NCBI GenBank assembly: GCA_029259745.1
Contig: JAJDEO010000002.1
Location: forward strand, 53,787-117,786
DNA from: Planctomycetota bacterium
Lineage (GTDB): Bacteria; Planctomycetota; B15-G4
Direction: 5' to 3'
Length of the DNA stretch: 64,000 nt
Positions within the stretch are counted from its first letter, which is position 1, and each line of letters starts with the position of its first letter. The notes beneath the pieces were generated by a model. That model was not told the origin of the DNA, made no database searches, and saw nothing but the letters and a program-made list of their open reading frames with translations. The translations under genes and the position numbers were made by a program. Shown piece by piece: positions 1 through 49,900 of this stretch.

Positions 1-2
1 CG

Positions 3-1019
3 CGGTTCAGCGCACCGTTCCTGTGGTCCGAGTGGTCGACGGTTGTCGATGCTTGGCAGGTCGACAACTGGGAGGAGTACCGAACCGTCAAGAGGCTTGG
101 ACGCAAGACCCGCCTGGCTGAGTCCCAGCGGCGCGAGTTGTGGGCCGTGTTCGATGCGGTCCGTGCGAGGCTCGCCGATCAGGGGCGTGTGACGATGGCC
201 GGTGTGCACCGGGCCGTGGCGCAGGCGATCACCGACAGCGGTGCGCGGCCCTACGACTTCGCGATCGTCGACGAGGCGCAGGACGTGAGCGTCCCGCAGC
301 TTCGCTTCCTCGCGGCGCTCGGCGCGGCACGCCCTGATGGGCTCTTCTTCGCTGGCGATCTCGGTCAGCGCATCTTCCGTCAGCCCTTCTCGTGGTCGTC
401 GCTCGGCGTGGAGATCCGCGGGCGGTCGTCGATCCTCCGCGTCAACTACCGAACGTCCCACCAGATCCGCACTGCGGCCGACAGGTTGCTTGCGCTCGAA
501 CTCGCCGACGTCGACGGCAACAAGGAGGACCGTCGCGGAACCGTGTCCGTCTTCAACGGACCGGTACCGGAGATCCAGCTCTTCGACTCAGCATCGGACG
601 AGAGCGAGTTCGTCGGCGAGCGCCTGGCCGCGTGGATGGCCGACGGCATGGCTGCGCACGAGATGGCCGTGTTCGTGCGCAGCGATGCGCAGCTCGCAAG
701 AGCCGAAGAAGCACTCCGCAAGGCAGGCGTCGACTACCGAGTTGTCGGACCCCGCATGGACACGACCCACGGCAAGGCCTCCCTGACGACGATGCACCGC
801 GCCAAGGGCCTCGAGTTCCGCGCCGTAGCCGTCATGGCCTGCGACGACGAGGTCGTGCCGCTCCAAGATCGCATCGAAACCGTCACCGACGACTCCGACC
901 TCGAAGAGGTCTACAACACCGAGCGGCACCTGCTCTACGTCGCCTGCACCCGCGCGAGAGATCATCTGCTGGTGACGGCGGTGGAGCCGGGTTCGGAGTT
1001 TTTGGAGGACATGGCGTGA
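3..1019 (+). CDS. UvrD-like superfamily 1 DNA helicase, C-terminal part (5' end truncated by window start)
   Basis: The reading frame is open from base 3 into the track ORF 138..1019. SF1 helicase motifs are visible: DEAQD (II), GDLGQRIF (III), VNYRTSHQI (IV), TTMHRAKGLEF (V) and LLYVACTRAR (VI). Confidence 0.75.
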   Translation, partial: RFSAPFLWSEWSTVVDAWQVDNWEEYRTVKRLGRKTRLAESQRRELWAVFDAVRARLADQGRVTMAGVHRAVAQAITDSGARPYDFAIVDEAQDVSVPQLRFLAALGAARPDGLFFAGDLGQRIFRQPFSWSSLGVEIRGRSSILRVNYRTSHQIRTAADRLLALELADVDGNKEDRRGTVSVFNGPVPEIQLFDSASDESEFVGERLAAWMADGMAAHEMAVFVRSDAQLARAEEALRKAGVDYRVVGPRMDTTHGKASLTTMHRAKGLEFRAVAVMACDDEVVPLQDRIETVTDDSDLEEVYNTERHLLYVACTRARDHLLVTAVEPGSEFLEDMA

Positions 1020-1056
1020 GGGCGGTGGGTGGCCCGGGGCGTCGGAGGCTGCGAAC

Positions 1057-2628
1057 ATGACAATCTTTGATCGGCTGAAGGCGTTTCTGTCGGGAGGCGC
1101 GCGACCGACATTCGGGGAACTGCACGCAAAAGCAATACGTACACCCGATGAGCCCGCTGGCGAGCAGGATCCGCCCAATCGGTCGCCCGTCGAGGCGGTC
1201 AAGCCAACGCGCGAGTTCGAACTCGTCCGGGATCTACTCAAGGAGGGGTGTGCTCCGTTCGTCCTCGTGATTGGTCAGGCCGGCACCGGGAAGACCACAT
1301 GCATTAACTGGCTTCGCGAGCAGGTCGACGGAAACGTCGTCGTCGTTGCTTTCACGGGGCTCGCAGCCCTGACAGCGGGCGGCCAGACGATCCACTCGTT
1401 CTTCAGGTTCCCGCCGAAGTGGCTCGGTCCGCGTGACATCGAGCTGCATCTTGATCCAGCGATCTACCAGGAGCTCGACGTCCTCGTCATCGACGAGATC
1501 TCGATGGTGCGCGTCGACCTGCTCGATGCCATCGATCGCTTCTTGCGGCTCAACCGGAGTCAACGAAATCCTGCCAATGCGAATCGTCCGTTCGGCGGTG
1601 CGCAGATTGTAGCGTTCGGCGATCTATTCCAGCTTCCCCCGGTGGTGACGCGGGGCGATCAACGCCTGATGGAAAGGGCCGGTTATCTCAGCCAGCACTT
1701 CTTCAGTGCCGAGGCATTGCGCAACCTTGCGCCAGCGACCGTCGAGTTGACGCAGCCATTCCGTCAGCGTGACAGCGTATTTCTGGGGTTGCTTGGATGC
1801 ATACGCGAGGATCGAGACACAGAACGCGCTGTCGAGGAACTCAACGCGCGATGTGCTGAGAGCGGGGCATCGAATGCGGATATCTGGTTGACGGTGGTGC
1901 CGACGCGCGCGCGCGCTGAGCGCGTGAATTTCCGGCAGTTGGACGTGTTGCCAAGCGAGCCTCGCACCTATCAGGGGCAGATCCGCGGGCGGTTCATCTC
2001 GGGGCTGCGCGAGGGGGAGAAGCCCAATGACACGCAGGAAGAACGAAATCTTCCCGCGCCTTTCGAGCTTCAGCTGAAGCCTGGCGCGCGTGTCATCTTC
2101 ACGAAGAACGACGGCGGGCACCAATGGGTCAACGGCACGATGGGCACCGTTGTGGCGACAGAGCCGGAGCACGTCGTCGTCAGGGTTGACGCTGACGGGG
2201 AAGGCGAAGGCGACATCGTCCACGTCGGTCGATCGCGATGGACGAAGGACCGGTACCAGTATGATCGGCTGCTCGGCCGGATTACCCAGGAGGAGGTCGG
2301 GTCCTATTCGCAGATCCCTCTTGCGCCCGCCTGGGCCATCACGATTCATAAGGTCCAGGGCCAGACCCTCGACCGCATCTGCGTCGACCTCGACCGAGGC
2401 GCGTTCGCCACCGGCCAGACCTACGTTGCCATCAGCCGCTGTCGCTCCCTCGATGGGCTCCGCCTTGCACGCCCGATCACGCGTGAGGACGTTCTCTGTG
2501 ACCCACAGGTACGGCGCTTCATGGACAGCGTGCGTCCGTCATTGGCGAATCGACTACTTGTCGAGGAAGGATCGACTCAGGACGAACCGTACGGACCCGC
2601 CGGCGAGAACTATGGCGAACAACGCTGA
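1057..2628 (+). CDS. PIF1/RecD-like (AAA_30) SF1 helicase
   Basis: Walker A GQAGTGKT, PIF1-type GGQTIHSFF, motif II VLVIDEISMV, GDLFQLPPV and a C-terminal WAITIHKVQGQT..YVAISRCRS motif. It starts 37 bp after the previous stop on the same strand. Confidence 0.75.
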   Translation: MTIFDRLKAFLSGGARPTFGELHAKAIRTPDEPAGEQDPPNRSPVEAVKPTREFELVRDLLKEGCAPFVLVIGQAGTGKTTCINWLREQVDGNVVVVAFTGLAALTAGGQTIHSFFRFPPKWLGPRDIELHLDPAIYQELDVLVIDEISMVRVDLLDAIDRFLRLNRSQRNPANANRPFGGAQIVAFGDLFQLPPVVTRGDQRLMERAGYLSQHFFSAEALRNLAPATVELTQPFRQRDSVFLGLLGCIREDRDTERAVEELNARCAESGASNADIWLTVVPTRARAERVNFRQLDVLPSEPRTYQGQIRGRFISGLREGEKPNDTQEERNLPAPFELQLKPGARVIFTKNDGGHQWVNGTMGTVVATEPEHVVVRVDADGEGEGDIVHVGRSRWTKDRYQYDRLLGRITQEEVGSYSQIPLAPAWAITIHKVQGQTLDRICVDLDRGAFATGQTYVAISRCRSLDGLRLARPITREDVLCDPQVRRFMDSVRPSLANRLLVEEGSTQDEPYGPAGENYGEQR

Positions 2629-2679
2629 CCGTCTTCTCGTCTGATATCCTCCCGCCGATAACCTCTGGGGAGAGCCGCC

Positions 2680-3879
2680 TTGCCGTCATCGTTCACGTGG
2701 CTCGACGCCAGCGAGGTGGATCGGCGTCGGGCGCTCGACGTGATCGACTTGTTCAGCGTGCGGGACACGCGCGACCAGCTCGGACTCGCCGGCATTCGCG
2801 ATGCATGGGCGGACCGGCTCGCGCCGGGGACGAGCACGGTTCAGACGCGGGCGCGGTACTTCCTGTTCGTGCCGTGGATGTACCGGGCGCTGGCTGCTTC
2901 CAGCGTGCGCGCGGATCGAGTTGAAGCGCGAGCGAAACGCTTCGAGCTCGGACTCATCAAGGCGATCCGAGCGTCGGATCCTTCGGACGGGCTCATCGGT
3001 GCGCAGGCCGGTCGGGGGCTGCAGCGACTGCCAAGTGACATCTACTGGGGTGGGCTTGGGGCGTGGAAGGTCAGACTGTTCATCGGGGCGCGGACCCGCT
3101 ACCACCGCGCTCTCGGGCAGGAACGCGTCGATTCTGTCTTCCTGACCGACGGCGGCGTCGCAGCCGACTGGAACCCACACCTTCCCGCTCCACCGGACGA
3201 CTTCCCTGACGTTGCCACGCTCGACCTGCGGCGCATCGACGCGGAGTTTCTCCGTGAGCAAATCGTGCAGCATGCGCGCGGGTCCTGGATCGCGCACCTC
3301 GTCATGTCCAACGAGGTCTGGGACACCGTCCCGGCGCTCTGGGATCACCCTGCGACGTCCTCCGCCCCTGCGGCACTGGCGCGGGACATTGAGCACGTGC
3401 GTTTGTTCAGTCTCTCGATGCACGGCGCAGCATTGGTGTACGGCCGGATGCTGTCGGAGCAACTTGGGCGCGCTGACTGGATCGTCGACTGGGGCAAGCG
3501 CTTCGATGCGTGGGTCGAACGAACGCGCGCGTCCGCCGACAGCCTGCAGCACTGGGACACCGACGACTTTTGGAACCGCACACGTCTTCTGAATCCGCGC
3601 ATCCCGAGGAACAGTCGGCAGTTCGCGAGTCGTTGGATCGACGGACTCCGGGTGCGCCTCCGCGCCGGATTGCTTGCCGACCTCGCCGACGATGCTGAGG
3701 TCCGTCGCGACATCACCGCACGCGAGAGGTTCCTCAAGCGACACCGCGCACGGCTCACGCATCGTGAGCACCTGCAGCGCTGGAGCGGCGCCTCGGGTGC
3801 CGACGCGTTCGACTTCCGCTGGCCGGTCACGCAGCGGCTCGTGCGCGACATTCAACTTGGTCTTCGGAGGGATGACTGA
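2680..3879 (+). CDS. Hypothetical protein (399 aa), first gene of a three-gene DUF/PLD/SNF2 operon
   Basis: Long ORF with no recognisable catalytic motif. It starts 51 bp after the PIF1-like stop, and its TGA stop lies 2 nt before the GTG start of the next gene, which is preceded by GGAGG. Confidence 0.6.
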   Translation: MPSSFTWLDASEVDRRRALDVIDLFSVRDTRDQLGLAGIRDAWADRLAPGTSTVQTRARYFLFVPWMYRALAASSVRADRVEARAKRFELGLIKAIRASDPSDGLIGAQAGRGLQRLPSDIYWGGLGAWKVRLFIGARTRYHRALGQERVDSVFLTDGGVAADWNPHLPAPPDDFPDVATLDLRRIDAEFLREQIVQHARGSWIAHLVMSNEVWDTVPALWDHPATSSAPAALARDIEHVRLFSLSMHGAALVYGRMLSEQLGRADWIVDWGKRFDAWVERTRASADSLQHWDTDDFWNRTRLLNPRIPRNSRQFASRWIDGLRVRLRAGLLADLADDAEVRRDITARERFLKRHRARLTHREHLQRWSGASGADAFDFRWPVTQRLVRDIQLGLRRDD

Positions 3880-3881
3880 AG

Positions 3882-5768
3882 GTGCTGACGCCGCGCGACC
3901 GCACCCTGCTCCTCGAGGCGTTACACACGCCCGACGGCTTCCGGCTTGACCAAGCCGTCGGCACGACCTTCACGCTCGACCTGATGGCGCTTCTCACCGT
4001 GCCTTTGGCGTTTACCTTCGCGCACTGGGATGACGACGAAGGCCGGCCGACGCTCGACCCCGTCGCGCTGATCCACGCGCTCCGTGAGCACGCACGTCGC
4101 ATGCACATCTTCTGCCAGGCAGGGGAGATCCGCGCGCCTGGTGCGGGCCAACCATTGTTCACCGCCCTTGAGCCGTCGGTGATCGAGGCGCGCGCGCCGA
4201 AGCCCGGCGGTCTCTTCCACCCGAAGGCCTGGGTCCTGCGCTTCACGAACGCCGACGGCGATGTCATGTATCGCGTGCTCGTCGCCAGCCGCAACCTGAC
4301 CTTCGACCGCTCGTGGGACACGCTGCTCGTGCTCGAAGGATCATTGACTGGCCGCAGCCGCAACGTTCGTGACAGCGTTCCACTCGGTGACTTTGTTGCG
4401 GCGCTCCCCGACCTCGCACTGCGGCGCGTGCCGCAGCAAACGCGTCAAGCGATCCTCGATATGGCCGGCGAGCTACGCCGCGTTCGGTTCGACCCGCCCG
4501 AGCCGTTCAAGGAGCTGCACTTCCATCCCTTCGGCGTCGCTGGCCGCGCGAAGCACTGGCCATACGAAGGCGCATTCAAGGGGGTGGTCGTCTCGCCGTT
4601 TGTCGGCGACGAGATGCTCGCCGACCTCCTCGATACGTGCGAGGACTGGAACCGTCGCGAGGTTGACCTGCAGCTCATCTCGCGGCCTGAGTCTCTGGTC
4701 GGATTGTCGCGCGAAGTCGTCGAGCGCTTCTCCAGCTGCTGGATGCTGTCGGCCGATGCCGACCCCGAGGATGGTGTCGAGGAGTCAGAGGGTGGGGAGG
4801 CCTTCACTACCGACGACGCCCTCACGGGGCTGCATGCCAAACTTGTCGTACTGCACCGTGACCACTACGCGCATGTGTTCACTGGGTCGGCGAACGCGAC
4901 GGTGGCAGCTCATCAGCTCAATGTCGAGTTCATGGTCGAACTTGTCGGTGGTCGCGAAAAATGTGGTCTGCCCGCGTTGATGGGAAGCGATGGCGACGAG
5001 GGCAAGGGCACGCTGCGTGAGTTGCTTGAGCCGTGGGAGCCCGTCGACACCGAGCCGGACGCCGAGCAGGAGCTGATCAACGACCTCGACCGGCGACTCG
5101 CGAGAGCGCGCCTTGCCGTCGGCACGTGCGACCTCATACTCAACGTCGCGCCGACATCGGCCGACGATCGAGGCGACGTCACTTACGACGTTGACGTCAC
5201 CGGCGCGATGCCGGAGATGCCCGCTGGCGTGCGCGTCGTATGTTGGCTGGCAACGCAGGTCGTTCACTGCGCTGTGGAGCCCGCGAAGGGAGACACCGAG
5301 CACGTTGCGCGCTTCACGGACATCGCGTTGATTGATCTCACGGCGTTCCTCGCCTTTGAATGCGTCGCGAGTGAAGGCGGCGTTGAGCGGCGTTCGCGGT
5401 TCGCGCGACACCTGCCCCTGGTTGGCGCGCCCGACGACCGCGAAGAACGTCTCCTGCGCGCCATGCTCAACGATCGCGAGAAGGTCATGCAGCTCCTTCT
5501 GATGCTGCTTGCTGCCGACGACACCGGAGCGCCTCCGCCGGGTTTGGCGGACGGTGCGGGCCTCTGGAGCCGCTGGGGCGGGCCCGATGGCGTGCCACTG
5601 CTCGAGTCGCTCGTCGGTGCCCTCGCGCGCGACCCGTTGAGCCTCGAGCCAGTGCGCCGGCTCGTCGACGACTTGCGGCGGACCGAGGAGGGCGCCGAGC
5701 TGCTTCCCGACGGCTTCGGCGCGATCTGGGCGGGGGTTGAGGCCGCTGCCGGGGAGCTGCGCAAGTGA
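3882..5768 (+). CDS. PLD-like (phospholipase D / nuclease superfamily) protein with two degenerate HKD-type motifs
   Basis: First motif GGLFHPKAWVLRF...VLVASRNLT (HxK then S-x-N). Second motif LHAKLVVLHRDHYAHVFTGSANAT (HxK then GSxN). Both aspartates are replaced. 628 aa with a GTG start. Confidence 0.65.
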   Translation: MLTPRDRTLLLEALHTPDGFRLDQAVGTTFTLDLMALLTVPLAFTFAHWDDDEGRPTLDPVALIHALREHARRMHIFCQAGEIRAPGAGQPLFTALEPSVIEARAPKPGGLFHPKAWVLRFTNADGDVMYRVLVASRNLTFDRSWDTLLVLEGSLTGRSRNVRDSVPLGDFVAALPDLALRRVPQQTRQAILDMAGELRRVRFDPPEPFKELHFHPFGVAGRAKHWPYEGAFKGVVVSPFVGDEMLADLLDTCEDWNRREVDLQLISRPESLVGLSREVVERFSSCWMLSADADPEDGVEESEGGEAFTTDDALTGLHAKLVVLHRDHYAHVFTGSANATVAAHQLNVEFMVELVGGREKCGLPALMGSDGDEGKGTLRELLEPWEPVDTEPDAEQELINDLDRRLARARLAVGTCDLILNVAPTSADDRGDVTYDVDVTGAMPEMPAGVRVVCWLATQVVHCAVEPAKGDTEHVARFTDIALIDLTAFLAFECVASEGGVERRSRFARHLPLVGAPDDREERLLRAMLNDREKVMQLLLMLLAADDTGAPPPGLADGAGLWSRWGGPDGVPLLESLVGALARDPLSLEPVRRLVDDLRRTEEGAELLPDGFGAIWAGVEAAAGELRK

Positions 5769-8700
5769 GCCGCGATGACATGGAACATCCGAGCGCCGAG
5801 CCCACGCTCGCGCGCCTGAAGGGCTTCCAAAGGGCCGCAGTCGAGACGGCGTTCGAGCGGCTTTACACGGCGCCTGACTCGACGCGGCGCTTCCTCGTGG
5901 CAGACGAAGTCGGACTCGGCAAGACGCTCATTGCTCGCGGCATCATCGCCAAGGCCGTCGAACACCTTTGGAACGACGTCGAGCGCATCGACGTCGTCTA
6001 CCTCTGCTCCAACGCCAGAATCGCGAAGCAGAACATCCGCCGGCTCAACCCCTTCCCAGGCCTCTCCATTGCTGAGGCCGACCGCATCACGATGCTCCCG
6101 GTGAAGCTTGGGGCACTCGCCCACGATCGGCTGAACTTCGTGGCGTTCACGCCGGGCACGTCGCTAGATCTGAAGTCGAGCGAGGGACAGCGGCGCGAAC
6201 GTGCGCTTTTGTTCTGGTTGCTGCATGGCCATTGGCACCACGGTGATAACGGCGCAAGAAACCTTCTCGACGGTGCGGTCAAGCGTCGCGATCGCTGGCA
6301 TCAACTCGTGGACGACTTCCCGGCTACGAACCACATCGCGCCGAAGGTCCAGCGGCGCATCTTAGAGGCCCTTGAGAGTGCGGGCGCTTCAGGGACGACG
6401 ACGGGCAAGGGTGGGTTACGAGTTCGCTTCCAGGCTCTGTGCGCGCGGTTCGAGCGTGCGCGGCCGCCGTGGTCGGGTGTCTTACGCGAGGAACAACGCG
6501 AGCTTGTCGGCGAGCTGCGCACGCACGTCGCGAGGGCCTGCATCGACCTGCTCGAGCCTGACCTCGTCATCCTCGACGAGTTTCAGCGCTTCAATGACCT
6601 GCTCGACCCGCGCACCGACAGTGAAGCCGCCCAACTTGCACGACGCCTCTTCGAGTGGAGCGACGAGTCAGCCGAGGCGCGCGTGCTCTTGCTCTCGGCC
6701 ACGCCGTACAAGATGTACACGCTCACTCACGAGGCCGATGAAGACGACCACTACGCCGACTTCCTACGCACGGTCGACTTCCTCGAGCCGGACCACACGC
6801 GCCAAGCACAGCTCCGCCGACACCTCGGTGACTACCGGCGCGAGCTCTACAGCCTCGGAGCGGGCGGCGGCGAGCGTCTGCACGAGGTCAAGGCATCGAT
6901 TGAGCTGGCGTTGCGGCGCGTGATTTCGCGGACAGAGCGGCTCGGAGCCGGTGGCGCGCGCGACGGGATGCTGAAGGCCGTGTCGGTTCCGGGCGTGGCG
7001 CTCGAACCGCGCGACGTGCTCGACTTCGTCTACTTGCAGCGCATCGCCGATTGTCTCGAGCAGCGCAGCGTCGTCGAGTACTGGAAGTCGGCCCCGTACC
7101 TGCTGAACTTCATGGAGGATTACGGGCTCAAGCGCCAGCTCGAAGCCGAGCTGACGCGCCGTCGCCCCGATGCTGAACTTGTCGAGTGTCTTGCTGCCGC
7201 CGATGGCCTGCTGCTCGATGCACGTGGTCTGCGCGACTACGAAGCCGTCGCCCCGGCAAACGGGCGTCTTCGTGCGCTGGCCGACGACCTCTTCAAGAGC
7301 GGGTTGTGGCGCTGTCTTTGGCTGCCCCCGTCGCGACCAAACTATGCGCTCGGCGGTCCCTTCGCCGAGGCCTCGTCGCACTCAGCGGGCACGACGAAGC
7401 GGCTCGTCTTCTCGGCGTGGACCGTCGTGCCGAAGGTCATTGCGGCGTTGCTTAGTTATGAACTCGAACGCCGTAGCTTCCACGCCTTCGGCGGCGAGGT
7501 TGAGAACACGTCGGAGGCTCGCAAGAAGCGCGCGCCGCTGCTCCGGTTCGCGCGCAGCGAAGGACGGCTTTCCGGCATGCCGGTGCTGGCGTTGGCGTAT
7601 CCGTCGCCGGCCCTCGCGCGTCTCGGCGATCCGCTGGACGTCGCAGGCCGATTTGGAGAGAACACCGCGCAGGACGACCTCGTTGACGTTGTCGCCGCGC
7701 GCATCGAGACAGACCTCGCACCGATCCTCGCGCAGCATGCGAGCGAGCAGGGCGGCCCGGATGACGATTCGTGGTACTGGCAGGCACCTATCTTGCTCGA
7801 CCGCGCTGCTGACAAAGCAGGCACCGAAGCCTGGTGGTCGGAGGACGCGCTCGCGGCGCGCTGGACGGCGGCCGGTGACGACGATGGCGACGGAGGCCGT
7901 CTATGGACGGAGCACGTCGAGGAAGGCGTACGTGTCGCGCTGGGGGACCACACGCGCCTCGGTCGGCCACCCGCCGACCTGGTGACGACCCTTGCTCGCT
8001 TGGCGATCGCGGGGCCGGCCGTCTGTGCCCTACGCTCCTTCGAGCGCGTCCTCGACACCAGCGACGAGGATGCAGTGCGGGTCCGCCTCGCAGCCGGCCG
8101 GATCGGCTTCGCGTTCCGCTCGCTGTTCAACCGCCCCGAAGCGATGGCATTGCTCCGTGCAGGTCGCCGCGATACGCCGTACTGGCGACTCGTGCTCGGG
8201 CACGGCCTGGACGGCGACATCGACGCTGTACTCACCGAGCACATCCACGTCCTCCGCGATCTTCAGGGCTTGTTCGACGCTCTGCCGGGCGACGCGGCCG
8301 AGCGGCTCGCGAGAGTCGTTGAGGAGACCCTGTCGATCCGCGCCTCGTCCCAGCCATACGACGTGGTCCAGGCGTTGGGGGATGATGGTCAGGTCGAGCT
8401 GAACAAGAACGTTCGCAACCTGCGCGGCCACGTGGCGATGCGCTTCAGCACCGACAAGAGTGAGGACGAGGCCGGCGGTGTCCGCGCCGACACGGTTCGT
8501 GACGCGTTCAACTCACCCTTCTGGCCGTTCGTGCTGACGACGACCTCGGTAGGGCAGGAGGGCCTCGACTTCCACGCATGGTGCCACGCGGTCGTCCACT
8601 GGAATCTCCCGTCGAACCCAGTTGATCTCGAGCAGCGCGAGGGCCGCATACACCGCTTCAAGGGGCACGCCATCCGCAAGAACGTGGCGCGACGTCATGG

Positions 8701-9031
8701 CGCCGCACTCAACATCAAGGCGGGCGAGGATCCATGGTCGCTCATGTTCGACCAGGCCGTTGCGGATGTGGCCGATGACGCGCGCGGTCTCGTTCCATGG
8801 TGGGTCTATCCGCTTGAGGGCGGAGCGTCCATCGAGCGCCACGTGCCGATGCTTCCGCTGTCGAGGGAGCAGAGCAAGCTCGAGGCGCTCCGTAAGTCGC
8901 TCGCGGTGTACCGCATGGTGTTCGGACAGCCGCGGCAGGACGACCTCTTGGCTTACCTGATGGAGCACGTGTCACGCGAGGATATCGAGCAAAAGATGGC
9001 CGGGATGCGGATGGACTTGTCGCCGAGGTAG
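5765..9031 (+). CDS. SNF2/DExH-family SF2 helicase (1088 aa)
   Basis: Motif I VADEVGLGKTLIARG, motif II VILDEFQRF, motif III LLLSATPYKM and a C-terminal helicase core TTTSVGQEGLDFHAW...QREGRIHRFKGH. Its start overlaps the PLD gene stop (GTGA). Confidence 0.8.
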   Translation: MSRDDMEHPSAEPTLARLKGFQRAAVETAFERLYTAPDSTRRFLVADEVGLGKTLIARGIIAKAVEHLWNDVERIDVVYLCSNARIAKQNIRRLNPFPGLSIAEADRITMLPVKLGALAHDRLNFVAFTPGTSLDLKSSEGQRRERALLFWLLHGHWHHGDNGARNLLDGAVKRRDRWHQLVDDFPATNHIAPKVQRRILEALESAGASGTTTGKGGLRVRFQALCARFERARPPWSGVLREEQRELVGELRTHVARACIDLLEPDLVILDEFQRFNDLLDPRTDSEAAQLARRLFEWSDESAEARVLLLSATPYKMYTLTHEADEDDHYADFLRTVDFLEPDHTRQAQLRRHLGDYRRELYSLGAGGGERLHEVKASIELALRRVISRTERLGAGGARDGMLKAVSVPGVALEPRDVLDFVYLQRIADCLEQRSVVEYWKSAPYLLNFMEDYGLKRQLEAELTRRRPDAELVECLAAADGLLLDARGLRDYEAVAPANGRLRALADDLFKSGLWRCLWLPPSRPNYALGGPFAEASSHSAGTTKRLVFSAWTVVPKVIAALLSYELERRSFHAFGGEVENTSEARKKRAPLLRFARSEGRLSGMPVLALAYPSPALARLGDPLDVAGRFGENTAQDDLVDVVAARIETDLAPILAQHASEQGGPDDDSWYWQAPILLDRAADKAGTEAWWSEDALAARWTAAGDDDGDGGRLWTEHVEEGVRVALGDHTRLGRPPADLVTTLARLAIAGPAVCALRSFERVLDTSDEDAVRVRLAAGRIGFAFRSLFNRPEAMALLRAGRRDTPYWRLVLGHGLDGDIDAVLTEHIHVLRDLQGLFDALPGDAAERLARVVEETLSIRASSQPYDVVQALGDDGQVELNKNVRNLRGHVAMRFSTDKSEDEAGGVRADTVRDAFNSPFWPFVLTTTSVGQEGLDFHAWCHAVVHWNLPSNPVDLEQREGRIHRFKGHAIRKNVARRHGAALNIKAGEDPWSLMFDQAVADVADDARGLVPWWVYPLEGGASIERHVPMLPLSREQSKLEALRKSLAVYRMVFGQPRQDDLLAYLMEHVSREDIEQKMAGMRMDLSPR

Positions 9032-9035
9032 CGCC

Positions 9036-9056
9036 AGTCAGCGTCAGTCGCTGACT
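9036..9056 (+). terminator. Candidate stem-loop terminator after the SNF2 gene
   Basis: Inverted repeat AGTCAGCG-tcagt-CGCTGACT lies 5 nt after the TAG stop. There is no T-tract, which is usual for high-GC genomes. Confidence 0.3.
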
Positions 9057-9421
9057 TGCATGGAACAGTCCTGCGATCGGGAATCATCTGACGTGCGCAA
9101 TCGCGCACATCCGCTTGGCGTTCCCCTGTCACCGGGCATCCGGCCAGGCCTCCGAATCATCTCCCAGCACTGGATGGTCGACCCTACGGGCCCGCCAGGC
9201 TTCGCGGCGTCGAACGCGGTACGCGCGACGATTGACTAGGGCTGTCGCTGGCGGCGGTGCAGGTCTCTTCCCCGTCGTCGGGACGTCGTAGTTCGCAGGG
9301 ATGACGCAACGCACGGTCCTCGATCGACCACATCGAACCCCGGGCGACTACCGTCTCCGCTATCTATCAAGCAGCCCGGACGGCCCCTGCGTCTCGCGCC
9401 TGGAACTTTCGCTCAACCTTC

Positions 9422-9802
9422 GTGCGATTCGATCCCGATGAGTTGAGGATTGATGTCAAAACCTCTTCGAGAGTTGGCCGAGTGACTACAGCGACAATAG
9501 TTGAGACGCGTGAGTGTGATTTCTGCGGTGAAGACGTGCTTGTGAAGGCAAAGAAGTGCAAGCACTGCCACGAGACACTTGATCCGGCAATGCGCAAGGC
9601 TGAAGAGGCTATGCGCGTTTCGACAGCCGGAAGTGGCAGCGCCTCCTCGGCAGCGTCCGCAACCGTGGTCGTTGCAGGTCCGGACACTCGGCCTAACTTC
9701 CCCCACGTGTTTCACTTTCTCATGACGGTCGTCACCGTCGGATTCTGGGGGTTCGTCTGGGTGCTGCATTACTGCTGTCGTGGCGAGACTTACAAGAACT
9801 AG
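9422..9802 (+). CDS. Small zinc-ribbon membrane protein (CxxC...CxxC plus C-terminal TM helix)
   Basis: CDFCGED..CKHC zinc-ribbon pattern and hydrophobic tail FHFLMTVVTVGFWGFVWVL. Codon usage is visibly lower-GC than the flanks (aca, ata, gtt, gat, aag). The true start is uncertain (ATG 9422 or a downstream GTG). Confidence 0.45.
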   Translation: MRFDPDELRIDVKTSSRVGRVTTATIVETRECDFCGEDVLVKAKKCKHCHETLDPAMRKAEEAMRVSTAGSGSASSAASATVVVAGPDTRPNFPHVFHFLMTVVTVGFWGFVWVLHYCCRGETYKN

Positions 9803-9880
9803 TCGGCTATCTCACCTCGCGAGTGCCGCACGACGGCCTGCCCGGGCGGCCGAGTCGCCATCTGTCCCCTCAGGGCGAAG

Positions 9881-9957
9881 TGGTCGGGGTGACTGGATTC
9901 GAACCAGCGACCTTCTGCTCCCAAAGCAGACGCTCTACCAAACTGAGCCACACCCCG
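9881..9957 (-). tRNA. tRNA-Pro (anticodon TGG) with encoded CCA
   Basis: Hand-folded cloverleaf: acceptor CGGGGTG/CACCCCG, D-stem GCTC/GAGC, anticodon stem TCTGC/GCAGA with loop TTTGGGA, T-arm GCTGG-TTCGAAT-CCAGT, discriminator A, then CCA. Confidence 0.85.
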
Positions 9958-9988
9958 ACGGTGTGGGGGCATTGTAGGGGGCGGGGCG

Positions 9989-11467
9989 GTGGAGGCAATC
10001 GTCTCAAGGGGTGGGGCGTCGGGGGCCGACCGGGATGGGATGGAACTCTCGCGCGATGGGCTGCTGAGGTGGGTGGGGCTGCGTCTCGGCGCGGGGGTTC
10101 TGCTCGGTGGGGTGTGCGGGTGTTCGGAGCCTGCGCCTGCGCCGGTGCGTGCGGGGCCGGCGCAGCATCTGTTGCTCGTTGTCGTCGACACGCTGCGGGC
10201 CGATCACGTGGGCGTGCTCGGGGCGGCGCGGGACACGACGCCGCAGCTCGACGCGCTCGCGGAGCGCGGCGTCGTCTTCTCCCAGGCCATCGCGCCGTCG
10301 CCGTGGACGCGGCCCTCGATGGGGACGCTCATGACGGGCCGTCTTCCGCTCGCGCTGGGACTCACGGATCACAACTTCCGCAACCCGCAGACCGACGGGG
10401 ACGTGCTGCCGCAGTCGGCGCTGACGCTCGCCGAGGTCCTCGGCTCGGCCGACTTCGCCACGAGCGGCGTCGTCGCGAACATCAACGTCGAACCCGTCTT
10501 CGGTTTCGACCAGGGCTTCGCCGACTACGTCTCCGTGCCCGCCGAGATGGCCTCCGACCCGGCCTGGCGCGAGCGCAACGACTGGCTCCGCGACACGTCG
10601 TCACGCGTCACGACCCGCGCGCGCGACTGGCTCGCCGACTTCGCCGCCACGAACAGCGTCGACGACCGCGCCTTCCTCTACGTGCACTACCTCGACCCCC
10701 ACGATCCCTACACGCCCGCAGCAAAGTTCGACGCGCTGTTCGACGCCGATCGCTCGTCCGGCAATCCGTGGGCCGAGGACGAGCGCCTCTACGACGCCGA
10801 GATTCGTCAGATCGACGCCGAGGTCGGACGCCTGCTCGACGGGCTCGACGACGCCGGGATCGCCGACGACACCCTCGTCGTCATCGTCTCCGACCACGGT
10901 GAAGAGTTCGGAGACCACGGCGGCACGCGTCATGGCCACAGCGTCTACGACGAACTTCTGCGCGTGCCGTGGATCATGGCCGGCCCCGGCGTCGCGCGCG
11001 AACGACGTCGCGATCAGGTGGGGCTCATCGACGTCATGCCCACCGTCCTCGACGCGCTCGACATCGCGGCGCCGACGGGTCTGCGCGGTACTTCACAACT
11101 CGCCCTGACGCCGACGACCCGCGCCACGCGCAGCTCGGTCAGCGCGGAGCACGCGTCGGCAGCGGTGTTCAGTGAGTCGGCCTACGTCCCGCTCAACGCT
11201 CTGCGCGCACCACCCTGGAAGCTCATCGTCGACACGGAGACGAACGCAGCGTCGCTCTTCAACCTCGCGCGCGATCCCCGCGAACACGACGACGTCGCGG
11301 CGCACCATCCGCACGTCGTGCAGCGCTTGCTCGAACGCTGGCGAGACGAGCGCGCAACATCCGAGCGCAACCGTCTCCCGAGCGACGCGACCAGCACGGG
11401 CCTCTCATCGGCCCAGCGCGAACAGCTCGAAGCGCTCGGCTACATCGGCGACGACCACGCGCGCTGA
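9989..11467 (+). CDS. Sulfatase-like hydrolase (alkaline-phosphatase superfamily), probable lipoprotein
   Basis: LLLVVVDTLRADHVG metal-binding motif and SPWTRPSMGTLMTGR (variant C/S-x-P-x-R region). Signal/lipobox LLGGVCGCS. The start could be the internal ATG near 10037. Confidence 0.65.
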   Translation: MEAIVSRGGASGADRDGMELSRDGLLRWVGLRLGAGVLLGGVCGCSEPAPAPVRAGPAQHLLLVVVDTLRADHVGVLGAARDTTPQLDALAERGVVFSQAIAPSPWTRPSMGTLMTGRLPLALGLTDHNFRNPQTDGDVLPQSALTLAEVLGSADFATSGVVANINVEPVFGFDQGFADYVSVPAEMASDPAWRERNDWLRDTSSRVTTRARDWLADFAATNSVDDRAFLYVHYLDPHDPYTPAAKFDALFDADRSSGNPWAEDERLYDAEIRQIDAEVGRLLDGLDDAGIADDTLVVIVSDHGEEFGDHGGTRHGHSVYDELLRVPWIMAGPGVARERRRDQVGLIDVMPTVLDALDIAAPTGLRGTSQLALTPTTRATRSSVSAEHASAAVFSESAYVPLNALRAPPWKLIVDTETNAASLFNLARDPREHDDVAAHHPHVVQRLLERWRDERATSERNRLPSDATSTGLSSAQREQLEALGYIGDDHAR

Positions 11468-43165: not shown

Positions 43166-44557
43166 GTGATCGCGAGTCCTCCGACGATCGGTCCGACCAT
43201 GGCCACACTCTCTCTTCTCGCCGCCGCCTCGTGCGCGGCGATGCTCGCCGTCAGTTGCGCGACGCCCGCAGATCCGCCGCCGCGCGCGCAGTCGTTCGAG
43301 GCGCGTGCGCTGCCGGCCGCGCCTGTTGCGCGCTCGACGCGCGCCTCGTCACAGGCCGCCATCACGTTCCCTGGCGGCGACCTCACCGACATGCTGCGCT
43401 TCGCGCTCGAACACAATCCCGAGATGCGCGCGGCCCACGCGCATTGGAGCGCGCTCGCCGAGCGCATCGAGCAGGCCGAGACGCTGCCCGATCCCACCGT
43501 GACGTTCGGCGAGTTCCTCGAAGAACTCGAGACGCGCGCGGGGCCGCAGCGCCGGCGGCTCGGGTTGTCGCAATCATTCCCCTGGCCGGGCACGTTGGCT
43601 GCGCGTGCGCGTGTCGCCGAGCGACGGGCCCACGCGGCCTGGTACGCCCTCGACGCCAAGCGGCTCGCCATCGTCGAAGACGTCACGCGCGCGTATCACG
43701 AGTACGCCTTCGGTGGGCGCGAGCTCGAGATCCGGCGCGAGTTGCTCGAGCTGCTCAGCGGGCTCGAACCGCTCGTGCAGGGGCGCGTGCGGACCGGCGG
43801 TCCCCAGGCGCAGCTGTTGCGGTTGCAGGTCGAGATCGGCGCGCTCGAGGATGTGGTCGCCAGCGTCGACGCGCGGTTGCCGGTGCTCGCCGCGCGCCTG
43901 GCGGATGCGCTCGGTGTTCCGAGCTCCGCGGGGCTGCTCGACCCGCCGAAGCTCGCTGTCCCGAGTGACATCGTCGTCGACCTGGAGGCACTTCGCGCCC
44001 GACTGCACGATCGCAACCCGGCGCTGCACGCCCTCGACGCGGAGTGGAGCGCTGCGCGCGCCGCCGAGGAGCTCGCAGACCTGCGCGGCTCACCCAACTT
44101 CACCGTCGGCGTCGACTATCTCGACACCGGCGCGGCGATCAACCCCGGGACGCCGGACAGCGGTGACGACCCGCTGCTCCTCAGGGTCGGCATGACGATT
44201 CCGATCTGGCGTTCGAGCGTTGCGGCGGGGCGGCGTGAGGCGCGGCTGTCGAGCGCGGCGGCCCACGAACGCGTCGCGGACGCCGAGTCGCGCCTCGCCA
44301 CCGAACTCGCCGCTGCGGCCTTCGCTGTCGAGGATGCGCTGCGACGCGTGGAGCTCTATCGCGGCGCGCTCGTTCCGCGGGCCCGCTCGTCGCTGTCACT
44401 CACGGCGGCGTCGTATCGCGCGGGCACGTCCACTGTCGTCGATCTGCTGGACGCCGAGCGCGTCGTTCTCGAGTTCGAACTCTCGTCGTGGCGCGCCTGC
44501 CGCGATGCCTTCGTCGGCGCGGCGCGCCTGACGACTCTCACCGGAGGTGAGCCATGA
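43166..44557 (+). CDS. Outer-membrane efflux protein (TolC/CzcC/CusC family)
   Basis: OEP-family repeats and an N-terminal signal. First gene of the OMF-MFP-RND operon. Confidence 0.7.
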   Translation: MIASPPTIGPTMATLSLLAAASCAAMLAVSCATPADPPPRAQSFEARALPAAPVARSTRASSQAAITFPGGDLTDMLRFALEHNPEMRAAHAHWSALAERIEQAETLPDPTVTFGEFLEELETRAGPQRRRLGLSQSFPWPGTLAARARVAERRAHAAWYALDAKRLAIVEDVTRAYHEYAFGGRELEIRRELLELLSGLEPLVQGRVRTGGPQAQLLRLQVEIGALEDVVASVDARLPVLAARLADALGVPSSAGLLDPPKLAVPSDIVVDLEALRARLHDRNPALHALDAEWSAARAAEELADLRGSPNFTVGVDYLDTGAAINPGTPDSGDDPLLLRVGMTIPIWRSSVAAGRREARLSSAAAHERVADAESRLATELAAAAFAVEDALRRVELYRGALVPRARSSLSLTAASYRAGTSTVVDLLDAERVVLEFELSSWRACRDAFVGAARLTTLTGGEP

Positions 44558-46953
44558 CCGCCCGCCTGCTACTCGCCGTCTTTGCGACGGCGCTCATCGC
44601 CTTTGCCATCGGTCGCATCTCGGCACCTGATCCCGCGCGAGGAGCGCCGGCGAGCGTCGATGAACACGCGGGTCACGACCACGCGGCCATCGAAGCTGGC
44701 GCAGATTCCGTGGCGACGCTCTGGACCTGTCCGATGCACCCGCAGATCCAACTTCCCGAGTTCGGCGACTGTCCGATCTGCGGCATGGACCTCGTGCCGC
44801 GCGCGGCCGGCGGCGACGATGACCCGCGGCGCCTTGCCATGTCACCGGCCGCCATCGCCTTGGCAGGAATCATCAGCGAGCCGGCGCGTCGCCGCAACGT
44901 CACGCGTCCGGTGCGCATGGTCGGCAAGATCGACTACGACGAAACCGCCGTGCGCACGATCTCGGCCTGGGTCGCCGGTCGCCTCGAGCGGCTGTTCGTC
45001 GACGCGCAGGGCGTCCCCGTGGCACGCGGTGACCACCTCGTTTCGATCTACAGCCCCGACTTGCTGCTCGCGCAGGATGAACTCCTCGTGGCAAAGCGCG
45101 AACTGGCCGGCATCACGTCGGCGACGTCGGAGTTCCTCGCCGAGTCGACGCGCGGAGGGTACCGCGCGGCCCGCGACAAGCTCCTGCTCTTCGGCCTCAG
45201 TGCGGGGCAGGTCGACGAACTCGAGCGTCGCAGCGTGGCCGACGATCACGTGCTCATCAACTCGCCCTCGTCCGGCGTCGTCATCGACAAGCTTGTCGAC
45301 GAAGGTGCCTACGTGCGGGTGGGCGAGCCGATCTATCGCATCGCCGACCTCTCGCGCCTCTGGGTGTTGCTCGACGCCTATGAGCAAGACCTCCCGTGGG
45401 TGCGCTACGGTCAACCGGTGCGGCTCGAGGTCGAGGCCATGCCGGGGCGCATCGTCGAAGGCACGGTGTCCTTCGTCGACCCCTTCATCGACGAGCACAC
45501 GCGCACGGCGAAGGTGCGCGTGCAGGTCGACAACTCCACCGGGTTGCTCAAGCCGGGGATGTTCGTGCACGGCGTCGTCCTCGCGCGGTTGGGTCCTGGC
45601 GGCGCGCTGATCGTCGACGACGTGGCGGGCAAGTGGGTCTCGCCGATGCACCCCGAGATCGTCAAGGACGGGCCGGGTGTATGTGATGTGTGCGGCATGG
45701 ACCTCGTGCCGGCCGAGGAACTCGGCCTCGTGTCCGAGCCGTCCGACGGCGAGCGCCCGCTCGTCGTGCCGCGCAGCGCGGTGCTCGTCACCGGAGTGCG
45801 CGCGATCGTCTATGTCGACGTGCCAGGCGCGGAGCGTCCGACGTACGAGGGACGCGAAGTCGTGCTCGGCCCGACGGCCGGTGACGACGTCATCATCATG
45901 GACGGACTCGAGGAGGGCGAGCGTGTCGTCGTCAACGGCGCCTTCCGCGTCGACAGTGCGATGCAGATCGTGGCCAAGCCGAGCATGATGTCGATGCCGG
46001 GCGAACGACGCGCGCCGAGTGGACCGCACGTCGCGGTGTTCGTCGAGTCGCTGGGAGCCGTGTACGACGCCGCGTTGGCGTTGCAGGTGGCGCTGGCGGG
46101 GGACGACGAGCTGGCCGCGCGTGCTGTCTTCGTCGAACTCGAGACGGTGCTCGATGCGCCGATCGCTTCGGGGCTCGCGGCCAGCGAGCGTATGATCTGG
46201 AGCGAAGAGCGCGCGCGTCTGGTGGGCGCAGTGCGCGAGGCCCGGCGCGCCGCAGACATCGGCGAGCTACGGGTCGCGTTCGAGCACGTCTCGTTGTCGG
46301 TGCTGACGCTGGCGCTCGAGTTCGGCCACGATCGCCCCGGCGTGCTCATCGAGGCGCACTGTCCGATGGCCTTCGATGATCGCGGCGCGAGCTGGCTCCA
46401 AGCCGGCAGCGAGATTCTCAACCCGTACTTCGGCGCCGCGATGTTGCGCTGCGGCGACGTGCGCACGCAGCTCGGTGATGTGTCACATGCGACTCCGACG
46501 GTCGAGGAACACGAGCACGCGGAGCCTGGCGCGCATGCGCCACACGGCCCGGCTTCCGAGCTCTTCGAGGCATATCTGGTCTTGCAGGAAGCGCTCGCTG
46601 CCGACGCTGCCGCGGTTGCCGAGCAAGCGGCAGAGGCGTTGCACGCGGCGGCCGAGGCCGCCGGTGCCGACGACGTCGCGTCCGTCCTCGCGCGGCGCGC
46701 TGAACGGTCCTCTGACATCCAAGGGCTGCGCGTGCTGTTCGCGCCGATCTCGGAAGCCATGATCGCGCGGGTCGGTCGCGCGGGGCAACCGCTGGGCGAG
46801 ACGTTGCACGTCGTTCACTGTCCGATGGCCTTTGACGATCAGGGCGCGAACTGGATCCAACGGGAGCGCACGGTCGCCAACCCGTACTTCGGCGCCTCGA
46901 TGTTGCGCTGCGGGCGGGTCACCGAAGATCTCGAGCCGGCGGGTGACCGATGA
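44554..46953 (+). CDS. RND efflux periplasmic adaptor (CusB/CzcB-like) with heavy-metal-binding and DUF3347-like repeats
   Basis: Two CPMHP..CP(I/V)CGMDLVP metal-binding modules, an HlyD-like core, and C-terminal tandem repeats HCPMAFDD(R/Q)GA(S/N)W(L/I)Q...NPYFGA(A/S)MLRCG. ATGA overlap with the upstream gene. Confidence 0.75.
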   Translation: MTARLLLAVFATALIAFAIGRISAPDPARGAPASVDEHAGHDHAAIEAGADSVATLWTCPMHPQIQLPEFGDCPICGMDLVPRAAGGDDDPRRLAMSPAAIALAGIISEPARRRNVTRPVRMVGKIDYDETAVRTISAWVAGRLERLFVDAQGVPVARGDHLVSIYSPDLLLAQDELLVAKRELAGITSATSEFLAESTRGGYRAARDKLLLFGLSAGQVDELERRSVADDHVLINSPSSGVVIDKLVDEGAYVRVGEPIYRIADLSRLWVLLDAYEQDLPWVRYGQPVRLEVEAMPGRIVEGTVSFVDPFIDEHTRTAKVRVQVDNSTGLLKPGMFVHGVVLARLGPGGALIVDDVAGKWVSPMHPEIVKDGPGVCDVCGMDLVPAEELGLVSEPSDGERPLVVPRSAVLVTGVRAIVYVDVPGAERPTYEGREVVLGPTAGDDVIIMDGLEEGERVVVNGAFRVDSAMQIVAKPSMMSMPGERRAPSGPHVAVFVESLGAVYDAALALQVALAGDDELAARAVFVELETVLDAPIASGLAASERMIWSEERARLVGAVREARRAADIGELRVAFEHVSLSVLTLALEFGHDRPGVLIEAHCPMAFDDRGASWLQAGSEILNPYFGAAMLRCGDVRTQLGDVSHATPTVEEHEHAEPGAHAPHGPASELFEAYLVLQEALAADAAAVAEQAAEALHAAAEAAGADDVASVLARRAERSSDIQGLRVLFAPISEAMIARVGRAGQPLGETLHVVHCPMAFDDQGANWIQRERTVANPYFGASMLRCGRVTEDLEPAGDR

Positions 46954-49900
46954 GTGACGATCGCTCGCCGATGACACGCGTCATCGGGTTCTTCCTCGGC
47001 AACCCGCTACTCGTCGCGCTCGCCACGGTGTTCGCGATCGGCTGGGGCGTGCTTGTTGCGCCGTTCGACTGGGACATCCCCGGCATCCCGCGCGACCCCG
47101 TGCCCGTCGACGCGATTCCCGACACAGGCGAGAACCAACAGATCGTCTTCACGGCGTGGCCGGGCCGCTCACCGCAAGACGTCGAAGATCAGATCTCGTA
47201 TCCGCTGACCGTCGCGCTGCTCGGCGTCCCCGGCGTCAAGAGCATCCGCAGCTCGTCGATGTTCGGCGTCTCGTCGGTGTTCGTGATCTTCGAAGACGAG
47301 ATCGAGTTCTATTGGTCGCGCAGTCGACTGCTCGAGAAGCTCGGAAGCCTGCCGCAGGGAACGCTTCCCGACGGCGTGCAGCCCGCTCTCGGGCCCGATG
47401 CGACGCCGCTCGGACAGGTCTTCTGGTACACGCTCGAAGGGCGTGACACCGACGGCAAGCCCACCGGCGGATGGGATCTGCACGAGCTGCGGTCGGCCCA
47501 GGACTGGCACGTCCGGTATGCACTTTCGAGCGTCGCCGGCGTGGCCGAGGTCGCGTCGATCGGTGGGTACGTGCAGGAGTATCAGATCGATGTCGACCCC
47601 GACGCGATGCGGGCGCATGGCGTGTCGCTCGAACGCGTCTTCGGGGCCGTGCGCAACTCGAACGTCGACGTCGGTGCGCGCACGATCGAGGTGAACCGGG
47701 CCGAGTACGTCGTGCGCGGGCTGGGCTTGATCGAGTCGCTGGAGGATCTCGAAGAGGTCGTCGTGGGAATGCGTGGCGACGTCCCGGTCACGGTGCGGCA
47801 GATCGCGAACGTCGCGCTCGGGCCGGCGCTGCGGCGCGGTGCGCTCGACAAGGGCGGGGCCGAGGCCGTGGGCGGCGTCGTCGTCGCGCGCCACGGCGCC
47901 AACCCCATGGCGACGATCGACGGCGTGAAGGCCAAGATCGCCGAGATCGCTCCGGGCCTGCCGTCCAAGGTGCTCGACGACGGCCGCGTCTCACGCGTCA
48001 CCGTCATTCCCTTCTACGATCGCTCGGGCCTCATCCGCGAGACGCTTGGCACGCTCAGCGATGCGCTCGAGCAGCAGATCCTCGTCACGATCCTCGTCGT
48101 GCTCGTGATGGTGGGGCACCTGCGCAGCGCCGTGCTCGTCTCGGGGCTGCTGCCGCTCGCCGTGCTCATCACGTTCATCATGATGAAGCACACGGGTGTC
48201 GACGCGAACGTCGTGGCGCTTTCCGGCATCGCCATCGCGATCGGCACGATGGTCGACGTCGGTATCGTGCTCACGGAGAGCATCCTGAACCACGTCGCGC
48301 CGGGACAAACCGTGCGCGAACGTCTCGATGCCGTGCGAACGGGCGCCGCCGAGGTGGGCAGCGCGGTGCTGACGGCCGTGCTGACGACCGTCATCAGCTT
48401 CCTGCCCGTCTTCACGATGGAAGGTGCCGAGGGCAAGCTCTTCGGCCCGCTGGCGGCCACGAAGACCTACGCGTTGATCGCGTCGATCTTCGTCGCGCTC
48501 GTCGTGATCCCGCCGGCGGCGTTGCTGATGCTCGGACGGGGACGCCGTGAGAACGATCGCAAGCCGGGTCTGCTCGGTGCGCTGCTCCTCGCGGCCACGG
48601 GCGCCCTCGCGTGGAATGTTCTCCACCCGGCACTCGGGGGCGCGCTCGTCGCCTACGCTGTCTGGCGCGTCATCGCTCCGCGCCTGCCCGCCATCGTGAT
48701 GCGCATTGCGTCGACGATTTTCGCGATCGTGGCCATCGCCGCCGTCGCGTGGTGGCTGGCTGAGCGTTGGGAGCCGCTCGGTCCTGGCAACGACACGCGC
48801 AACCTCATCTTCACGGTGACGACGATCGGCGGCGTGCTGCTCGCGTTCCGCCTGCTGGTGCTCGTGTACGTCCCGCTGCTTCGGATGTGTCTGCGCTTCA
48901 AGCTCACGTTCCTCATGCTGCCGACGCTCCTGATCGTCTTGGGGCTCTTCTCATGGCTCGGCTTCGCGCGCGTCGCGGGCCCACTCGCTCCGGCCGTCGC
49001 GCGTGTCTCGTCGTTCGTCTCCGAGGATGTCACGGCCAGTGATGTCGCACTTTCTCCGACATGGGTCTCGCTCGCTCACACCTTCCCGGGGCTCGGCAAA
49101 GAGTTCATGCCGTCGCTCGACGAGGGCTCGTTCCTGCTCATGCCGGTGACGATGGCCCACGCGTCGATCGGCGAGGCGTTCGACCTGCTCCAGCAGCAGG
49201 ACATGGCCATCCGCGCGATCCCGGAGGTCGACGAAGTCGTGGGCAAGATCGGGCGCGCCGAGACGGCCCTCGACCCGGCGCCGATCTCGATGGTCGAGAC
49301 GGTCATCACGTACCTGCCCGAGTTCGTGCTCGACGAGAATGGTCGTCCCCGACGCTTCGCCTACGACGACGAGCACGCGCGCTTCGTGCTCGACGACGAC
49401 GAACAGCTCGTGCCCGATGACGACGGGCGTCCCTTCCGGCAATGGCGCGATCACATCGAGTCGCCGTACGACATCTGGAAGCTGATCGAGAACGCCGCGG
49501 CCGTCCCCGGCATGACCACGGCCTCGATGCTCCAGCCCATCGAGACGCGGCGCATCATGCTGCAGACGGGCATGCGCGCCTCCATGGGCGTCAAGATCCG
49601 CGGCCCCGACCTTGAGAGCATCGAACGCGTCGCACTCGATTTCGAGCGCATGCTCAAGGACGTCCCGTCGATCCGCCCGGCCACCGTGCTCGCCGACCGC
49701 GTGATCGGCAAGCCGTACCTCGAGATCGACATCGACCGCCGCGCCATCGCGCGCTACGGCCTCTCGGTGCGCTCGGTGCAAGACGTCATCGAGGTGGCGA
49801 TCGGCGGCCGGCAGCTCACGACCACCGTGGAGGGCCGCGAGCGCTACCCCGTGCGCGTGCGCTACCAGCGCGAGCTGCGCGACGACATCGGCGACCTCGA

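Follow-up and report, generated by a model that had tools for sequence, protein, structure and literature searches.

Two neighbouring superfamily 1 helicase genes beside an Azaca system in a Planctomycetota defence island probably belong to separate units

Two helicase genes of different families stand directly upstream of an anti-phage gene triad in a 64,000-nucleotide stretch of a Planctomycetota bacterium genome (GenBank assembly GCA_029259745.1, contig JAJDEO010000002.1, forward-strand positions 53,787 to 117,786; hereafter, the window). Do they form a functional unit with each other or with the triad, or did they come to lie there independently? An initial annotation, made from the sequence alone, recognised a UvrD-like and a PIF1/RecD-like gene at the start of the window. 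It left open whether they are a separate two-gene module, part of a larger five-gene unit, or a derivative of a mobile element. With good confidence we conclude that they are two unrelated superfamily 1 (SF1) helicases in different units of a defence island. The first closes a type III-like restriction-modification (R-M) unit, the second is a solitary Pif1 gene, and both lie beside a complete Azaca system. The features concerned are as follows.

3..1019, plus strand: C-terminal 338 codons (residues 353-690) of a 690-amino-acid UvrD-type SF1A helicase with a predicted N-terminal RelE-fold domain
1020..1056, plus strand: G-rich spacer of 37 bp, with a GGAGG ribosome-binding site 8 nt 5' of the ATG
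1057..2628, plus strand: stand-alone Pif1-family SF1B helicase, 523 amino acids (Pfam PIF1; solved structures)
2680..3879, plus strand: ZacA (DUF6361), gene 1 of Azaca (PADLOC ZacA, E = 1.8e-109; Pfam DUF6361, 173 bits)
3882..5768, plus strand: ZacB, phospholipase-D-family nuclease of Azaca (PADLOC ZacB, E = 1.5e-163)
5765..9031, plus strand: ZacC, SNF2/DEAD-type NTPase of Azaca (PADLOC ZacC, 1124 bits, E = 0)
9881..9957, minus strand: tRNA-Pro (UGG), with its 3' end toward the defence genes

Both helicase genes belong to known kinds of protein, and the matches behind these and the Zac assignments are well outside what chance would give. Open reading frames (ORFs), Pfam matches and coordinates agree with the initial annotation in placing two helicase genes on one strand with gaps of 37-51 bp (37 bp from the stop at 1019 to the ATG at 1057; 51 bp from the stop at 2628 to the TTG at 2680). 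The family calls, UvrD-like SF1A and PIF1/RecD-like SF1B, also held, with Pfam UvrD_C and PIF1 scoring above their cutoffs, and so did the proposed defence setting, the triad being Azaca and its neighbour an R-M unit.

The UvrD-like gene and the methyltransferase gene upstream of it

From window position 3, a reading frame runs uninterrupted to a stop at 1019 and encodes 338 residues, which match Pfam UvrD_C (78 bits; cutoff 25.6) and also UvrD_C_2. The gene had been described as cut by the window start, and this was borne out by Logan contig L001, which is 100% identical to the window over 3906 shared bases and supplies 1300 bases 5' of it (window position 1 is L001 position 1301). On this contig the gene is complete at 690 amino acids (L001 247-2319). 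The full-length protein matches PF00580 (61 bits) and PF13361 (75 bits), both above cutoff, which places it in the UvrD/Rep/PcrA-type SF1A superfamily. It falls far short of the housekeeping UvrD/PcrA/Rep equivalogs, the top NCBIfam match being pcrA at 94 bits versus a cutoff of 911. The family to which it belongs is strongly conserved: the best 120 protein clusters are 64-74% identical to the query over its full length, with Acidobacteria, Betaproteobacteria, and Sedimentisphaerales among the groups for which clusters are named.

The upstream sequence supplied by L001 stops inside a DNA methyltransferase (Mod) gene, of which L001 2-247 encodes the last 81 codons. The initial annotation had raised the prospect of a transfer module in this position; the recovered 1.3 kb is methyltransferase and not a transfer gene. 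The Mod stop codon overlaps the start codon of the UvrD-like gene by 1 nt (TGATG). The Mod fragment is 80-86% identical to the C-termini of plasmid-encoded proteins annotated as "site-specific DNA-methyltransferase" and 86% identical to Mod of Pseudomonas avellanae, where an identical 1-nt overlap joins Mod to the helicase gene. A protein search with the 81-residue fragment returned short fragments only, at 85-95% identity, with no exact match. As an aside, these last 81 residues recur at 85-95% identity across more than 100 protein clusters drawn from diverse environments and phyla, an unusual degree of conservation for the tail of an R-M gene.

In P. avellanae and Gemmobacter fulvus, a "BPTD_3080 family restriction endonuclease" (Res) lies on one side of the methyltransferase and the UvrD-like homolog on the other. 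Type III systems mark host sites by Mod methylation and cleave unmodified DNA with Res, which is an ATP-dependent helicase-endonuclease. The methyltransferase of the related loci (Mod, about 950 amino acids) matches the PADLOC model MTase_III over its whole length (1730 bits). The BPTD_3080 Res matches NCBIfam NF046055 (1335 bits) and has a type III Res architecture, because it combines a ResIII helicase domain with a C-terminal endonuclease domain; its match to the canonical type III Res model is weak. The unit therefore resembles type III R-M of the BPTD_3080 family in both Mod and Res. It differs in having a conserved third gene, a UvrD-type helicase with a predicted RelE fold, which has no counterpart in classical type III systems.

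To establish how regularly these genes travel together, relatives of the UvrD-like protein (60-73% identical) were surveyed at 80 metagenome loci (L094-L173), which were screened by tblastn. Mod lies 5' of the helicase gene on the same strand at 48 of the 50 loci whose upstream sequence exceeds 3 kb. Where more than 7.5 kb is available, Mod is present at all 30 loci and Res at 29. The two nearest relatives (74% identity; GCA_029259715.1 and GCA_029260315.1) are arranged as Res-(small gene)-Mod-helicase and Res-Mod-helicase, respectively, in each case followed by unrelated genes. Among plasmids, every one of the ten records in which a full-length Mod is close (at least 54% identity) also has the UvrD-like helicase, and no helicase match accompanies the full-length Mods of 51% identity or less among the listed plasmid records (cyanobacteria, Chlorohelix, Rhodococcus, Sphingobium, and others). 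Since it is present with close Mods only, we interpret the helicase as a lineage-specific accessory and not as a universal R-M subunit.

In the genome under study, Mod stands directly 5' of the helicase gene on the same strand, as in the Res-Mod-helicase units of its relatives. The UvrD-like gene thus completes a type III-like Res-Mod-helicase unit, the other genes of which lie upstream of the window. From the 29 of 30 related loci and both nearest relatives we infer that a Res gene is present upstream in this genome as well.

The interval between Mod and the helicase gene is itself variable. Across 64 metagenome loci, between 3 and 8214 nt separate the Mod stop from the helicase start, and the space is occupied by varying same-strand genes that encode AAA/ABC-type ATPases, a pair comprising an S8 peptidase and an AAA ATPase, a DUF262-like protein, a DEAD-box helicase, and small unknown proteins. 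No family occurs in this interval at more than four loci, and the interval resembles a hotspot for cargo genes inside the R-M operon.

The same survey bears on whether the two window helicases form a dedicated module, in which an SF1A 3'-5' motor and an SF1B 5'-3' motor would act as a bipolar machine like RecB and RecD of RecBCD. RecBCD does contain SF1A and SF1B motors of opposite polarity, and the window genes are adjacent on one strand, as recB and recD are, separated by 37 bp with no terminator. None of the 43 UvrD-family loci with at least 1.7 kb of downstream sequence, however, has a Pif1-like gene or ZacA, and no gene family downstream of the helicase is common to more than three loci; the two closest relatives are likewise followed by other genes. 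The converse survey, of genes within 10 kb at 80 genomic loci encoding relatives of the Pif1-like protein (36-46% identical), recovered no member of the RelE-UvrD family, no Res, and no Zac gene at any of the 80, the sole UvrD match being a 76-residue generic UvrD_C. The co-occurrence check that the initial annotation had proposed was thus run from both sides, and the genes do not co-occur at these loci. Moreover, it is with Mod that the UvrD-like gene is translationally coupled, and G+C content at third codon positions (GC3) is 0.844 in the UvrD-like gene versus 0.725 in the Pif1-like gene. The window pair also differs from RecBCD and AddAB in lacking RecC or AddB and in having no nuclease domain in either protein. 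These observations make a separate two-gene module highly improbable.

The RelE-fold head of the UvrD-like protein

The N-terminal region of the UvrD-like protein is encoded upstream of the window (L001 247-950). An AlphaFold model of residues 1-215 has a predicted local distance difference test score (pLDDT) of 85-94 over residues 1-100. Foldseek assigns approximately the first 95 residues of this model to the RelE/YoeB/YafQ fold, with a probability of 1.0 and a target template modelling score (TM-score) of 0.68-0.76. The modelled N-terminus therefore has a RelE-type alpha/beta fold; in sequence comparison, the Pfam HigB-like family gives a weak match (20 bits, under the cutoff of 27). Residues R57, R63, H67, H80, H81, D82, and Y85 are invariant in 12 sequences 68-79% identical to the window protein, and a conserved helical module follows C-terminal to the head at residues ~139-182. 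No antitoxin gene was seen adjacent to the UvrD-like gene.

The head shares its fold with the RelE, YoeB, and YafQ toxins, and an RNase or ribosome-binding activity can be conjectured from the modelled fold. Among the Foldseek matches is Cami1, a CARF-RelE fusion of type III CRISPR systems, which similarly joins a RelE-type domain to a sensor module in a defence protein; the partner of the predicted RelE fold here is an SF1A helicase and not CARF. The motor portion invites comparison with GajB of Gabija, which is also an SF1A UvrD-type motor in a defence operon, and GajB PADLOC models score 63-78 bits against the full-length protein, a match that reflects the shared helicase core only. Unlike Gabija, the UvrD-like gene has no GajA/OLD nuclease partner, its neighbours being the methyltransferase gene upstream and the Pif1-like gene downstream. 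To our knowledge, GajB has no RelE-fold N-terminal domain, in which the UvrD-like protein differs from it.

A RelE-UvrD helicase as an R-M component is undescribed in the papers that could be searched, although coverage was incomplete and this is absence of evidence only; the literature on BPTD_3080, RelE-UvrD fusions, and Pif1 in defence islands likewise yielded nothing specific.

On the proposed mechanism, BPTD_3080-family Res, Mod, and the 690-residue helicase translationally coupled to Mod would make up one type III-like R-M operon, in which the helicase would be a lineage-specific accessory composed of a RelE/YoeB-fold domain, the conserved helical module, and an SF1A motor. The helicase may load onto DNA ends or single-stranded DNA that arise from restriction or phage replication. 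Engagement of DNA may then be coupled to an output of the RelE-like head, either RNA cleavage or ribosome binding, and through such coupling the R-M unit would act in a second way.

The Pif1-like gene

The Pif1-like ORF (1057-2628) is complete, and PF05970 (PIF1) is its best Pfam family (87 bits; cutoff 25.9). Residues 47-501 align with solved bacterial Pif1 helicases at E = 3e-88 to 1e-61. The protein has a Walker A motif (GQAGTGKT), a Walker B motif (DEISM), and the PFGG...GDLFQLPPV signature (PFGGAQIVAFGDLFQLPPV), and the positions of all three are invariant in a 31-sequence alignment. By sequence it is a Pif1-family SF1B helicase for which 5'-3' unwinding is predicted. Enzymes of the Pif1 family unwind forks, G-quadruplexes, and R-loops in the 5'-3' direction. 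The protein resembles bacterial Pif1 (Bacteroides Pif1 5FHD/5FTB, the 6S3E group, and 8BNS/8BNV) in sequence, motifs, and size (~430-520 amino acids), and differs in an N-terminal extension of ~60 residues with no recognisable domain and in the location of its gene in a defence island. Assignment to RecD is not indicated, with the RecD equivalog TIGR01447 scoring 45 bits against a cutoff of 310 and with the UvrD-like gene and ZacA, not recB or recC, as neighbours.

PIF1/RecD-like proteins also occur as the helicase portion of TraA-type relaxases, and the gene could in principle be a remnant or part of a relaxase-helicase module in a cluster of conjugative-element origin, as the initial annotation had suggested. 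TraA_Ti is the top NCBIfam match (55 bits), TraA genes appear as weak tblastn matches (26% identity), and the island adjoins a tRNA gene. The TraA_Ti match is, however, far below the cutoff of 590 and covers model positions 378-708 only, which is the helicase part. Only ~66 residues precede Walker A, Pfam detects no relaxase domain in the protein, and a nuclease domain is likewise absent. The matches to Pif1 are far stronger (E = 3e-88 to solved structures), the recovered upstream DNA encodes a methyltransferase, and the region right of the tRNA contains no transfer genes. A mobilisation origin accordingly appears exceedingly improbable.

When flanking ORFs were clustered over the 80 Pif1-like loci, no neighbouring family was found at more than six. 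The closest relatives show a more particular setting. On three contigs, relatives of 55-58% identity lie directly 3' of a 1158-residue DrmA-like/DUF4325 gene in DISARM-like islands (one in GCA_041445565.1) that contain DrmMI-like and DrmD-like genes; these islands also contain a PDC-S68 homolog. A relative of 49% identity lies 3' of a LmuB-like SMC ATPase gene (Lamassu-like) with a TIR gene nearby.

These neighbourhoods raise the possibility that the gene is a portable single-gene defence or accessory factor carried behind methylation-based or other systems. The closest relatives (49-58% identity) do lie in defence islands, and the window copy follows a type III-like R-M unit. Against this, relatives at 46-51% identity lie among lipase, transporter, and regulator genes, the family at large shows no recurring neighbour and is frequent on viral contigs as well, and no Pif1-system model in PADLOC matched the protein beyond generic RecD-like domains. 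We consider this explanation rather unlikely and a defence or accessory role for the gene correspondingly doubtful; the data are equally compatible with a passenger or repair role. Under the preferred reading, in which the two helicases belong to different units, the Pif1-like gene would be an autonomous 5'-3' SF1B helicase gene that has no dedicated partner and was acquired separately, with which its lower GC3 is consistent (ZacABC, 0.79-0.80). It is probably co-transcribed with its neighbours, only through its insertion between two same-strand units.

The Azaca triad and the setting of the island

The triad at 2680-9031 is by itself a complete Azaca (ZacABC) anti-phage system. ZacA, ZacB, and ZacC are reported to be all and only the proteins needed for DNA cleavage in vitro (2025 preprint, 10.1101/2025.07.10.664194). 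Neither window helicase is a Zac protein, and both are missing from the other Azaca loci examined: neither helicase family occurs at any of nine distinct plasmid Azaca loci, and Azaca on Halomarina, Cronobacter, and Ralstonia plasmids has no upstream helicase gene. Among viral contigs, no Azaca with ZacA was identified, and one distant ZacC-like locus has no ZacA, ZacB, or helicase matches.

A five-gene defence unit comprising both helicases and ZacABC would be consistent with the arrangement on one strand with short gaps and no terminators. It might also draw on alphaproteobacterial plasmids, where an AddAB-like pair (a PD-(D/E)XK nuclease of ~886 amino acids and an AddA-like helicase of ~1135) lies directly 5' of Azaca in 10 of 14 non-Cronobacter records, representing two Azaca lineages ~41% identical in ZacA. 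The plasmid pair, however, belongs to families other than those of the window helicases, and 18 of the 28 plasmids that have a close homolog of the AddA-like helicase lack Azaca. Given that self-sufficiency of ZacABC in vitro, the upstream helicase-free plasmids, and the absence of Zac genes from all 160 surveyed helicase loci (80 on each side), the helicases are not recurrent Azaca components, and the five-gene unit that the initial annotation had entertained is very unlikely.

The AddAB-like pair of rhizobial plasmids was separately considered as a dedicated Azaca partner and was rejected on the same 18 of 28 plasmids, in which the pair has other defence-like cargo beside it: TerB/ATPase/DEAD genes, multiubiquitin-ThiF-DUF6527 genes, a restriction endonuclease with an AAA ATPase, or RES-Xre. 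Its position beside Azaca more likely reflects a hotspot at a conserved plasmid gene pair.

The setting of the five window genes is a chromosomal defence island of three independent units that ends at tRNA-Pro. We take tRNA-Pro as the right edge of the island because housekeeping genes continue to its right; the genes sampled there are ordinary chromosomal ones (sulfatase, SecDF, PPDK, glycosyltransferase, and a CusBA-like efflux pump). These include the CusB/CusA-like heavy-metal efflux pair at 44554-50765 (plus strand), and a Ski2/DSHCT-type DEAD-box helicase gene at 35712-37718 (minus strand) is likewise an ordinary chromosomal gene.

No att-type repeat of the tRNA-Pro 3' end was found within window positions 1-10100, and the ~850 bp between the end of ZacC and the 3' end of the tRNA gene (9032-9880) contain no integrase gene. 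Were the island an integrated element, the recombinase and the second att site would have to lie beyond the window start. The lower-GC spacer between ZacC and tRNA-Pro contains a 126-codon ORF (9422-9802, plus strand) that encodes a CxxC...CxxC zinc-ribbon motif and a hydrophobic C-terminal segment. A megablast search of window positions 1-9100 against plasmids gave zero matches.

A scan of the 37- and 51-bp spacers revealed no terminator-like or promoter-like site. The first spacer, GGGCGGTGGGTGGCCCGGGGCGTCGGAGG, contains several G-runs, which may be meaningless in a genome of 67% G+C. Because the gaps are short and terminator-like sites are absent, read-through transcription across the units is likely; this is a feature of the local arrangement and gives no evidence of a shared mechanism. 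We conclude that the two helicase genes stand side by side through assembly of the island.

Several observations weigh against this conclusion. All five genes share the plus strand, the spacers of 37 and 51 bp contain no terminator-like site, and co-transcription and some functional interplay among them are possible. The presence of Res in this genome is predicted from its relatives, as the recoverable sequence ends inside Mod. The closest Pif1 relatives recur at the 3' end of methyltransferase-containing systems, which could hint that the function of the gene is linked to such systems. The Pif1 relatives examined are at most 58% identical and the nearest Azaca relative examined is 39% identical in ZacA, and Pif1 could be associated with this Azaca subtype locally, within this lineage. 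The biochemical action proposed for either helicase is inferred.

Helicase-rich strings of genes in defence islands are easily mistaken for large new systems. The string in this window instead breaks down into a type III-like R-M unit, a lone Pif1 gene, and a standard, self-sufficient Azaca. Two leads emerge from this resolution. The part most deserving of follow-up is a very widespread family of accessory helicases, headed by a predicted RelE fold, that is bound to one R-M lineage; the other is a Pif1 clade that recurs at the 3' end of defence operons. A bolder interpretation, which we advance only tentatively and consider unlikely on present data, is that the RelE-UvrD helicase is a true third subunit, so that this R-M lineage would be a three-component system with a second, translation-directed output, for example RNA cleavage by the RelE domain triggered by contact of the helicase with phage DNA or by blocked restriction. 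The operon would also carry embedded defence cargo. Independently of this, the Pif1 clade may be a portable accessory behind methylation-based systems, both DISARM-like and type III-like.

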